A model generated the notes under the pieces. The model was not told where the DNA came from. It saw nothing but the letters and a program-made list of their open reading frames with translations, and searched no databases. The translations under genes were made by a program, and so were the position numbers. Source: a virus (lineage: Duplodnaviria; Heunggongvirae; Uroviricota; Caudoviricetes). Taken from it: a DNA stretch of 14,132 bases. Positions within the stretch are counted from its first letter, which is position 1; each line of letters opens with the position of its first letter. Below are positions 228 through 941 of this stretch, one piece after another. The DNA lies in IMG/VR virus record IMGVR_UViG_3300026224_000012. The stretch is one strand, 5' to 3'.

Positions 228-941
228 ATGACCAACTTCTACACGATCAACTATGAAAGTGAGCTTTTAGAAGAGGTCAAAGTGAACGAATCCATCAGGT
301 CAAAATGCACTTCTCCATCGGGTCAAAGTGACCTGATGGATGGGCGCAAAATGACACGATCCATTGGTTCAAAACGACACGCTGTCATCGGGTCAAAATG
401 GCCCAATGATCTTACAGAGAATACAACAGAGATTACTACAGAGAATAAAACCTCTTCTCGTCCGGACGCTTCGCAACCGGACACGCAAACGGCTGAACAG
501 GAGTTTTTAACTCGCCATCCTGATGCGGTTGTATTCAGCCCTAAAAAGCGCCAGTGGGGAACGCAGGATGATTTGACTTGCGCACAGTGGCTCTGGAAAA
601 AAATCATCGCCCTGTACGAGCAGGCCGCCGAATGTGACGGCGAGGTGGTTCGTCCCAAAGAACCGAACTGGACAGCATGGGCAAACGAAATTCGCCTGAT
701 GTGTGTGCAGGATGGTCGTACTCACAAACAAATCTGCGAGATGTACAGCCGCGTCAGCCGCGATCCGTTCTGGTGCCGTAACGTGCTCAGCCCGTCGAAG
801 TTGCGGGAAAAATGGGATGAGCTTTCCCTGCGCTTATCGCCGTCCGTCAGCACGCACACAGAAAAACGTGAAGACCCGTACTTCAAAGCCAGTTACGACA
901 ACGTGGACTACAGCCAGATCCCGGCAGGATTCAGGGGGTGA
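228..941 (+). CDS. Phage replication initiator, O-like, with origin iterons inside the coding sequence; possibly a 5'-truncated fragment
   Basis: Long ORF (track 192-941, TTG start; first ATG at 228). The frame is open upstream all the way to the IS junction at 128 with no ATG, and the iterons lie only about 150 bp from the IS end. Function is inferred from the lambda-O-like arrangement of origin repeats within the gene and its position ahead of a nin-like region. Confidence 0.55.
   Translation: MTNFYTINYESELLEEVKVNESIRSKCTSPSGQSDLMDGRKMTRSIGSKRHAVIGSKWPNDLTENTTEITTENKTSSRPDASQPDTQTAEQEFLTRHPDAVVFSPKKRQWGTQDDLTCAQWLWKKIIALYEQAAECDGEVVRPKEPNWTAWANEIRLMCVQDGRTHKQICEMYSRVSRDPFWCRNVLSPSKLREKWDELSLRLSPSVSTHTEKREDPYFKASYDNVDYSQIPAGFRG
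274..403 (+). repeat. Six direct iterons at about 23-bp periodicity, candidate initiator-binding sites of the replication origin
   Basis: Core GGTCAAA(A/G)TG(A/G)C begins at 275, 298, 321, 344 (degenerate GCGCAAAATGAC), 367 (GTTCAAAACGAC) and 391. The copy at 321-333 is palindromic (GGTCA-AAG-TGACC). The core TCAAAACGA resembles the lambda ori iteron as I recall it. Confidence 0.7.
414..449 (+). repeat. AT-rich region with three 12-bp direct repeats, candidate DNA-unwinding element of the origin
   Basis: ACAGAGAATA at 415-424, ACAGAGATTA at 427-436 and ACAGAGAATA at 439-448, immediately right of the iterons, as in ori-lambda. Confidence 0.55.

Follow-up and report, generated by a model that had tools for sequence, protein, structure and literature searches.

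In phage lambda, as in the Shiga toxin (Stx) converting phages 933W and P27, the replication origin lies in the middle of the initiator gene and consists of iterons, an AT-rich, purine-skewed tract and then a dyad; the origins of the two Stx phages have six iterons (PMC7466680). Here we describe a locus with the same number of iterons and with a layout that matches ori-lambda and the six-iteron Stx origins (PMC7466680; PMC6022878). It was found in the virus record IMGVR_UViG_3300026224_000012 (Caudoviricetes), whose whole stretch of 14,132 nucleotides is called the window below. With a probability that we put at roughly 85%, positions 275–482 are the cis-acting replication origin of a lambdoid prophage, situated inside the linker-coding part of its own O-like initiator gene; the 3' part of this gene (codons 61–330 and the stop codon) occupies 128–941 on the plus strand. 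This reading rests on anatomy, DNA-level selection, covariation between iterons and protein, homology and duplex stability, from which we infer binding, wrapping, melting and helicase loading.

A repeat search and Tandem Repeats Finder agree on six 23-nt units (270–292, 293–315, 316–338, 339–361, 362–384 and 386–408) spaced by 23, 23, 23, 23 and 24 bp, and the self-match of the sequence is 0.58 at lag 23 vs about 0.23 at other lags. The units contain six dyad-symmetric iteron cores of 13 bp on the plus strand (275–287, 298–310, 321–333, 344–356, 367–379 and 391–403), 23–24 bp apart, with the consensus GGTCAAAATGACC. A first reading of the window, made from its letters alone (the sequence-only reading), had described six copies of a core GGTCAAA(A/G)TG(A/G)C at about 23-bp spacing. 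All six positions and the spacing (270–408) were confirmed, but the exact core GGTCAAARTGRC is found at 321 and 391 only, the cores at 275, 298, 344 and 367 have one or two mismatches, and copies 4 and 5 (GCGCAAAATGACA and GTTCAAAACGACA) are degenerate. Copies 1–6 have 4, 3, 5, 2, 2 and 4 of the five possible arm pairs, respectively, the perfect palindrome picked out by that reading being the core at 321–333 (GGTCAAAGTGACC). The three tandem ACAGAGA(A/T)TA repeats that it had placed in an AT-rich stretch after the iterons are exact at 414, 426 and 438, with a step of 12 bp; the full units TACAGAGAATAC, AACAGAGATTAC and TACAGAGAATAA, delimited by both programs, start at 413, 425 and 437 and span 413–448. 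Together with the following AAC these 12-mers form an element at 413–451 (plus strand) that we propose to be a DNA-unwinding element of conserved sequence. In 1000 first-order Markov simulations of the whole window, the largest same-strand iteron cluster within 130 bp had three members and the largest 12-mer cluster within 30 bp had one, vs six and three observed. Both clusters are far beyond chance.

Relatives of this locus are numerous. TBLASTN with the N-terminal domain of the initiator matched 115 phage records, with identities of about 80% in Klebsiella and E. coli, about 60% in Providencia, Erwinia and Pseudomonas, and about 50% in Staphylococcus, Bacillus and Listeria. A further 160 loci came from scanning viral contigs and one genome for each species; 94 of them are non-redundant in the origin region. 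In 83 of these 94, ranging over Enterobacterales, Bacillus, Staphylococcus, Campylobacterales and Bacteroidota, 23-bp iterons are followed by two to five tandem 12-mers. The iteron spacing is 23 bp in 206 steps, 24 bp in 45 and 22 bp in 16, most loci have three to seven copies, and in 57 of the 83 loci 17 or 20 nt separate the last iteron core from the first 12-mer. We define the mEp460-type superfamily of initiators by an N-terminal winged helix with the motifs GLNEA..LQQ..YW and FPFWS.xT.KR, by iterons centred on CAAAWTG and by TACAGAGAnTAC repeats. The window belongs to it: FPFWSESTLKR (129–161), the iterons and the 12-mers are retained, and the first 60 residues have been lost to an insertion sequence (IS).

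The near-fixed distance between iterons and 12-mers bears on the possibility that the iteron array is mainly a site of regulation or exclusion (autorepression, titration, handcuffing-like control or interference with related phages) and that replication starts elsewhere. Iterons of plasmids serve initiation and control alike, and the array in the window is intact despite the broken initiator gene. Moreover, related phages are inhibited by cloned lambda origin regions, according to two reports (PMC3349717, PMC4488673). Yet across phyla the iterons keep their distance of 17 or 20 nt from the least stable tract, which an origin needs and a mere operator does not, and the position of the array corresponds to that of ori-lambda in a homologous protein. 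We therefore consider a purely regulatory role improbable.

The sequence-only reading had itself named a repetitive amino-acid motif, lacking conservation at synonymous positions, as a possible source of the periodicity. According to this explanation the repeats would be a by-product of a low-complexity peptide linker and have no function at the DNA level, and indeed the region encodes a disordered linker. The iterons do not fit it: 23 is not a multiple of three, the six units of the window are read in codon phases 0, 2, 1, 0, 2 and 2, and they encode the unrelated peptides VKV, RSKC, GQSD, RKMT, GSKR and GSKW. In relatives all three phases are used as well (153, 136 and 84 cores), and thus the iterons are not an amino-acid repeat.

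The 12-mers needed a separate test, as they are kept in one frame, being read as T-E-x-T in 240 of 245 copies in relatives. We collected T-E-x-T units at the peptide level, making no use of the DNA motif, and obtained 161 units from 62 non-redundant loci. Threonine is encoded by ACA in 161/161 units vs 25% elsewhere in the same genes, and glutamate by GAG in 161/161 vs a background of 47%. Codon 3 ends in T in all 161 units, while the amino acid that it specifies varies freely (N, I, T and S in 58, 54, 25 and 24 units, respectively). Fixed synonymous sites combined with a free replacement site are the reverse of protein-level selection. With the iterons in three codon phases, the synonymous positions of the 12-mers invariant and a neighbouring dyad that keeps its complementarity while amino acids change (see below), an origin of the repeats in the peptide linker is very improbable.

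The melting prediction proposed by the sequence-only reading singled out the same 12-mers. Among the 36-bp segments of the gene their tract is the least stable, with a dG of -40.3 kcal/mol vs a mean of -50.2 (standard deviation (sd) 3.6), that is 2.7 sd below; it stands at the 99.1 percentile of instability in the whole 14-kb window, and its A+T content is 69% vs 49% for the gene. In 72 of 81 relatives the tract likewise falls within the least stable 5% of the gene. Low stability could in principle be all there is to it: the 12-mers might be a passive unwinding element, conserved through inherited history or through an effect on RNA or transcription, for example a stable purine-rich R-loop. 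The mRNA-sense strand of the tract is 69% purine, resembling the AT-rich tract of lambda in this respect. The behaviour of lambda O can be read in the same way, since this protein binds AT-rich single strands, and replacement of the tract leaves its binding to iterons unchanged (PMC7466680).

The pattern of conservation is harder to reconcile with a passive element. The unit retains two G's and occurs in GC-rich Pseudomonas phages as ACAGAGACTAC, with about 42% G+C, which is unlike the outcome of selection for A+T alone; low stability by itself thus lacks the power to explain the conservation. In hundreds of lineages from four phyla the neighbours of one free position (n) are fixed, and over the same time the iteron arms have diverged completely. 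ACAGAGAnTAC is conserved at the nucleotide level in Proteobacteria, Bacillota, Bacteroidota and Cyanobacteria and has stayed nearly invariant while the iterons and the residue that may recognise them diversified. A passive element is, in our judgement, unlikely, though it deserves to be kept in mind. As to the sequence-only reading, which had treated the 12-mers as AT-rich repeats, they are AT-rich and easily melted but not merely so, their sequence being constrained.

A reciprocal search, for two 12-mers in tandem in viral contigs, found at least 120 loci, about 40 of them with wholly different iterons. Pairing of the 12-mers with unrelated initiators was considered, as 46 of the 120 loci were missed by a narrow profile (A1), and was dropped when an iterated profile assigned the N-terminal domains of all 223 distinct open reading frames with a 12-mer array to a single superfamily. 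BLASTN with a 48-nt 12-mer array identified 128 phage records, and of the 60 matches listed, all but the unannotated records lie under initiator-type genes. The hosts of these phages include Acinetobacter, Bacillus, Klebsiella, Staphylococcus, Vibrio, Pseudomonas, Lactobacillus, Synechococcus and Burkholderia, and Stx-converting phages are also among the carriers. The same query matched 65 plasmids, mostly from Bacillus (some of them small, 8.4 kb), with Nostoc represented too. The partner genes downstream of the initiator vary among carriers: a PerC-like gene, a primase-helicase gene, or genes for a helicase loader and DnaB.

This distribution is also relevant to a role of the array as some other cis-acting prophage site, in packaging, partition or recombination. 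Tandem repeats with dyad symmetry are known at such sites too; the array described here, however, is always found inside an initiator-type gene, in phages and plasmids whose packaging and partition systems are unrelated, and the terminase and portal genes of the window are about 10 kb away from it. Such a role is scarcely credible.

Comparison of the 12-mer by eye, not formally, with DnaA boxes, DnaA-trios, integration host factor (IHF) sites, sigma-70 hexamers and primase trinucleotides gave no convincing match. The pattern also matches AGAGATTACAAC in an apparent low-complexity coding repeat (RDYN-type) of a contig from the metagenome-assembled genome of a giant virus (L190); this match is probably unrelated and due to chance. 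Most simply, the 12-mers would be recognised by something that the whole superfamily has in common, perhaps a conserved initiator surface, perhaps a host factor present universally. A more specific proposal, which we advance tentatively and at slightly less than even odds, is that ACAGAGAnTAC may act as a sequence-specific signal read either by such a surface of the winged-helix initiators, for example as single-stranded DNA once the duplex has opened, or by a host replication factor shared by Proteobacteria, Bacillota, Bacteroidota and Cyanobacteria. It would be a portable cross-phylum "melt here / load here" element of phage and plasmid origins, and residue 67 of the initiator may be a simple amino-acid-to-base code for origin specificity.

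The iterons of the relatives have a common CAAAWTG centre and arms that are lineage-specific yet self-complementary: GGTCA/TGACC in Escherichia, Klebsiella, Proteus, Xenorhabdus and Staphylococcus; GGGCA/TGCCC in Pantoea, Erwinia, Pseudomonas and Yersinia; GGACA/TGTCC in Pantoea allii and Mixta; GTGCA/TGCAC in Campylobacterales and Comamonas; GTTCA/TGAAC in Bacillus and Anoxybacillus; and TGCCA/TGGCA in Taibaiella. Among the columns of the protein alignment, residue 67 has the second-highest mutual information with the iteron class and by far the lowest entropy of the top columns. In 63 relatives it follows the base located 5' of the CA core: 41 of 43 loci with T have serine, 16 of 16 with G aspartate, 3 of 3 with A lysine and the single locus with C arginine (1/1). 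The serine and aspartate states are each present in distant phyla. In the window this candidate specificity residue is Ser67 (147–149, plus strand), at the start of the predicted recognition helix (codons 66–79; 144–185, plus strand; AlphaFold2 model). Residue 67 is thus a candidate for a one-residue specificity code, as judged from these alignments.

The distinct initiator specificity that the sequence-only reading had deduced from its core, described as different from that of lambda, gains support from these data: the N-terminal domain has no Pfam match, the iterons travel together with it, and their flanks covary with residue 67. The difference of the core itself holds for the arms only, as the centre TCAAAAyGA is common to both systems.

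Immediately to the right of the 12-mers we found a third element that the sequence-only reading, correct about the iterons and the unwinding repeats, had missed: a 23-nt dyad at 460–482, GTCCGGACGCTTCGCAACCGGAC (GTCCGG-ACGC-TTC-GCAA-CCGGAC). Lambdoid origins feature an inverted repeat on the right-hand side of the AT-rich tract, and this dyad occupies that place. Of 232 distinct related loci, 140 have the dyad; where the C-terminus is lambda-like, relatives carry ATTCGTCGCAGAATTCTGACGAAT. In 38 distinct versions of the dyad 85.9% of the cells pair, vs 18–36% when the partner is slid by one to three columns. Five of the ten pairs change on both sides, with a covariation score reached by none of 500 shuffles, and the compensating pairs (TTGC/GCAA, TTTC/GAAA, TTCC/GGAA, CTCA/TGAG and CTGC/GCAG) alter the encoded amino acids.

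A GATC (Dam) site lies at 408–411, where the last iteron gives way to the first 12-mer. GATC occurs at most 16 nt upstream of the first 12-mer in 37 of 83 relatives vs a background of 6%; by distance, it is found in 19 of the 24 closest relatives and in none of the 13 distant ones, which are mostly Gram-positive. The prophage has a Dam methylase gene of its own at 1399–2085, two genes downstream.

Two types of mosaics show which parts of the locus belong together. Phages of the SfII/SfIV type and many E. coli phages are about 97% identical to the window at the nucleotide level rightward of a junction at about 439–445; left of it they have another N-terminal domain and other iterons, which in the SfII/SfIV type are HTH_36 and CCGTCAAAATCTGAC, respectively, with no 12-mers. 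Conversely, the Klebsiella phage Kp4884-3 (L004) has the N-terminal domain and the iterons in common with the window, and its BLASTN similarity stops at about 447, at the end of the 12-mer array. From both types it follows that the iterons and 12-mers belong with the N-terminal domain and that the recombination joint lies just after the 12-mers. The 460–482 dyad travels with the C-terminal module in the SfIV mosaic.

The protein fits this arrangement. BLASTP against lambda O aligns the C-terminal half only, with 34% identity over 148 amino acids (E 4e-27), and the homologous C-terminal domain is encoded by 513–941 on the plus strand. The alignment begins at the segment encoded by the last iteron and the 12-mers, which are aligned with the residues that iteron 4 and the AT-rich tract of ori-lambda encode in lambda O. 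The intact initiator of phage mEp460_4F5 matches phrog_391, "replication initiation O-like" (E 2.4e-101), and a Pfam search with the intact mEp460 initiator found no family at E<=0.01, Phage_rep_O included. In its sequence the N-terminal winged helix bears no relation to lambda O, and in this part the protein falls outside the lambda O family. In an AlphaFold2 model built with 46 relatives, residues 1–110 are folded as a winged helix (predicted local distance difference test score (pLDDT) 84–95 over residues 11–110) with helices at 14–20, 22–37, 54–60 and 66–79 followed by a beta hairpin, and residues 111–163, encoded by the iterons and 12-mers, are predicted to be disordered (pLDDT about 43). 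The best matches in the PDB found with Foldseek are winged-helix proteins, including the N-terminal domain of a staphylococcal plasmid RepA and a Rep-DNA complex. The repeats thus lie inside the coding sequence between a DNA-binding N-terminal domain and a C-terminal domain, as in origins of the lambda type.

All testable sequence-level expectations of a lambda-type origin hold. The lambda-type architecture claimed by the sequence-only reading is supported by repeats inside the initiator gene, dyad-symmetric iterons about 23 bp apart, the least stable DNA, the dyad and the homology to lambda O. Its statement that the origin is embedded in coding sequence is right as to the O-like initiator gene, but this gene is split by an IS, leaving this copy with no cognate initiator in cis.

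Several observations weigh against the interpretation as a lambda-type origin with a 12-mer signal and a residue 67 code. Eleven of the 94 relatives lack a recognisable 12-mer array, and five of these, from Bacillus and Neobacillus (L150, L154, L155, L165 and L167), whose N-terminal domains are about 50% identical, have neither recognisable iterons nor 12-mers. The invariance at synonymous sites fits an RNA-level signal equally well. A scan of the whole window against Rfam at gathering thresholds found no RNA family. The correlation of residue 67 with the iteron base is confounded by shared ancestry, and the lysine and arginine classes consist of three loci and one locus, respectively. The fold matches are weak (Foldseek E 6e-3, template modelling (TM) score 0.45–0.54), and a search of solved structures by sequence, using the N-terminal profile and the full protein, gave nothing usable. 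The gene directly after the initiator is PerC/YfdN-like and not a P-type helicase loader. Finally, the literature on lambdoid and DnaD-like phage origins yielded work on lambda and Stx phages only and no characterised member of the N-terminal superfamily. The searchable literature, outside of which older subscription literature lies, contained the iteron and 12-mer strings in unrelated primers only and no paper with two 12-mer variants, and neither iterons nor origins are mentioned in a paper that deals with non-lambdoid Stx replication regions. The G38P protein of phage SPP1 was considered as a characterised member of the superfamily and rejected, its N-terminal domain having no detectable relation (hhalign probability 0.1) and no 12-mers being present.

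If positions 275–482 are an origin of the lambda type, initiation could proceed as follows. Dimers of the N-terminal winged helix would bind the six dyad-symmetric iterons, whose central A-tracts and 23-bp spacing would allow wrapping into an O-some-like complex; the resulting strain would be relieved in the neighbouring 12-mers, where the DNA of the gene is least stable. There the replicative helicase would be loaded via the C-terminal lambda-O-like domain. The 12-mers would be recognised specifically, most likely by the initiator after strand opening, as their constancy at the DNA level across the superfamily suggests, and the 23-nt dyad at the right is a third conserved part. For the orphan origin of the window to fire, another prophage or an infecting phage would have to provide an initiator of matching specificity.

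The loss of the initiator in cis is evident at the left end of the window. Bases 1–127 are the end of an IS3-family insertion sequence on the minus strand, with the terminal repeat ending at 127 and the transposase orfA starting near 72, and thousands of E. coli genomes contain them with 100% identity at sites annotated "IS3 family transposase". The match to phage mEp460_4F5 (L001) sets in only at base 128 (position 3001 of the phage; 97.7% identity), inside an intact gene of 330 codons (2822–3814), and coding resumes at F61 of the motif FPFWSESTLKR. No copy of residues 1–60 was found anywhere in the window. The IS interrupts the winged helix after codon 60, separating helix 2 from the recognition helix; the junction at 127/128 is absent from all 5,426 complete E. 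coli genomes searched. Because the IS removed codons 1–60, the origin lacks a cognate initiator in cis, although the origin itself is intact.

The lambda P position is occupied by a YfdN/PerC-like gene (944–1432, plus strand; Pfam PerC, E 7.8e-9), the product of which matches phrog_1324, "transcriptional activator" (E 8e-79), and is annotated as yfdN/PerC family in E. coli genomes. It is followed by genes for the Dam methylase, a repressor-like protein and RusA, and further genes of the window encode a regulator, an HNH protein, a Q antiterminator, a holin, an endolysin, a methyltransferase, the large terminase and the portal protein. No helicase or helicase loader gene was found in the window. 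The remainder of the window is a lambdoid prophage.

Taken singly, this copy is an ordinary, textbook origin inside an initiator gene that has lost its initiator, and its value lies in the family that it reveals: a new specificity family of a known kind of origin, with the near-invariant 12-mer as the interesting part. The points that hold family-wide are DNA-level selection on the 12-mer, the relation between residue 67 and the iteron base, and the covarying dyad. The module is very widespread, occurring in E. coli, Shigella, Klebsiella and Stx-converting phages, in phages of Acinetobacter, Staphylococcus and Bacillus, and in Bacillus plasmids. Initiators of the family are often annotated "transcriptional regulator" or "GntR family" (H97, H163, H177, H180 and H181) and elsewhere "primosomal protein I" or "hypothetical"; the first three labels look like misannotations. 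In such genomes the 12-mer may serve as a simple sequence marker for locating origins. The relation of residue 67 to the iterons offers a testable rule for replication specificity, and hence for incompatibility or cross-activation between co-resident prophages, while the invariant 12-mer gives a handle on how O-type initiators devoid of an ATPase confine duplex opening and helicase delivery to a single site. Even where the initiator gene beside it is broken, an intact origin could still be activated in trans by a related phage.

Of the known systems, ori-lambda is the closest. Both have dyad-symmetric iterons with the A-tract centre TCAAAAyGA and a spacing of 20–24 bp, transcription crosses the elements in the same direction, the C-terminal domains are homologous (E 4e-27), and lambda has a comparable dyad, TTCGTCAGAGAATTCTGGCGAA, at the same place; the mRNA-sense strand of the lambda AT-rich tract is purine-rich, as is that of the 12-mer tract. 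They differ in the iteron arms (GGTCA/TGACC here vs TCCCTC/GAGGGA in lambda), in the unwinding tract (three conserved 12-mers vs an irregular A-rich run), and in the N-terminal domain, which has no Phage_rep_O match here and is accompanied by no P-like partner.

The product of gene 38 of the Bacillus phage SPP1 (G38P) is likewise a three-part protein, with a linker region containing repeated boxes and an AT-rich tract before the C-terminal domain, and it is this linker region that we take to be the site of oriL. Some initiators with 12-mers have an SPP1-like C-terminal domain, annotated "conserved phage C-terminal domain". Unlike our locus, SPP1 has other repeats and no TACAGAGAnTAC units, and its partners are a helicase loader and a DnaB-type helicase.

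The plasmid initiators of the RepA_N type (RepA of pSK41 and pTZ2162; PDB 4pql, 4pt7 and 5kbj) provide the best structural matches, with a winged-helix domain that binds iterons as a dimer, and RepA_N origins, too, are located inside the rep gene. The match is nevertheless weak (E 6e-3, 13–19% identity), and with no family match at the sequence level the initiator described here is not a RepA_N member. Finally, the 13-mers of E. coli oriC and RK2 oriV resemble the 12-mers in being tandem conserved units of 12–13 nt beside initiator sites and in forming the least stable DNA. The initiators of oriC and of iteron plasmids make contact with a single strand of the repeated units in these unwinding elements. 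The sequence and the class of the initiator are different, as there is no AAA+ domain here, and the element of our locus lies within a coding region; the enrichment of GATC at the boundary, in hosts containing Dam, is a further trait reminiscent of oriC.

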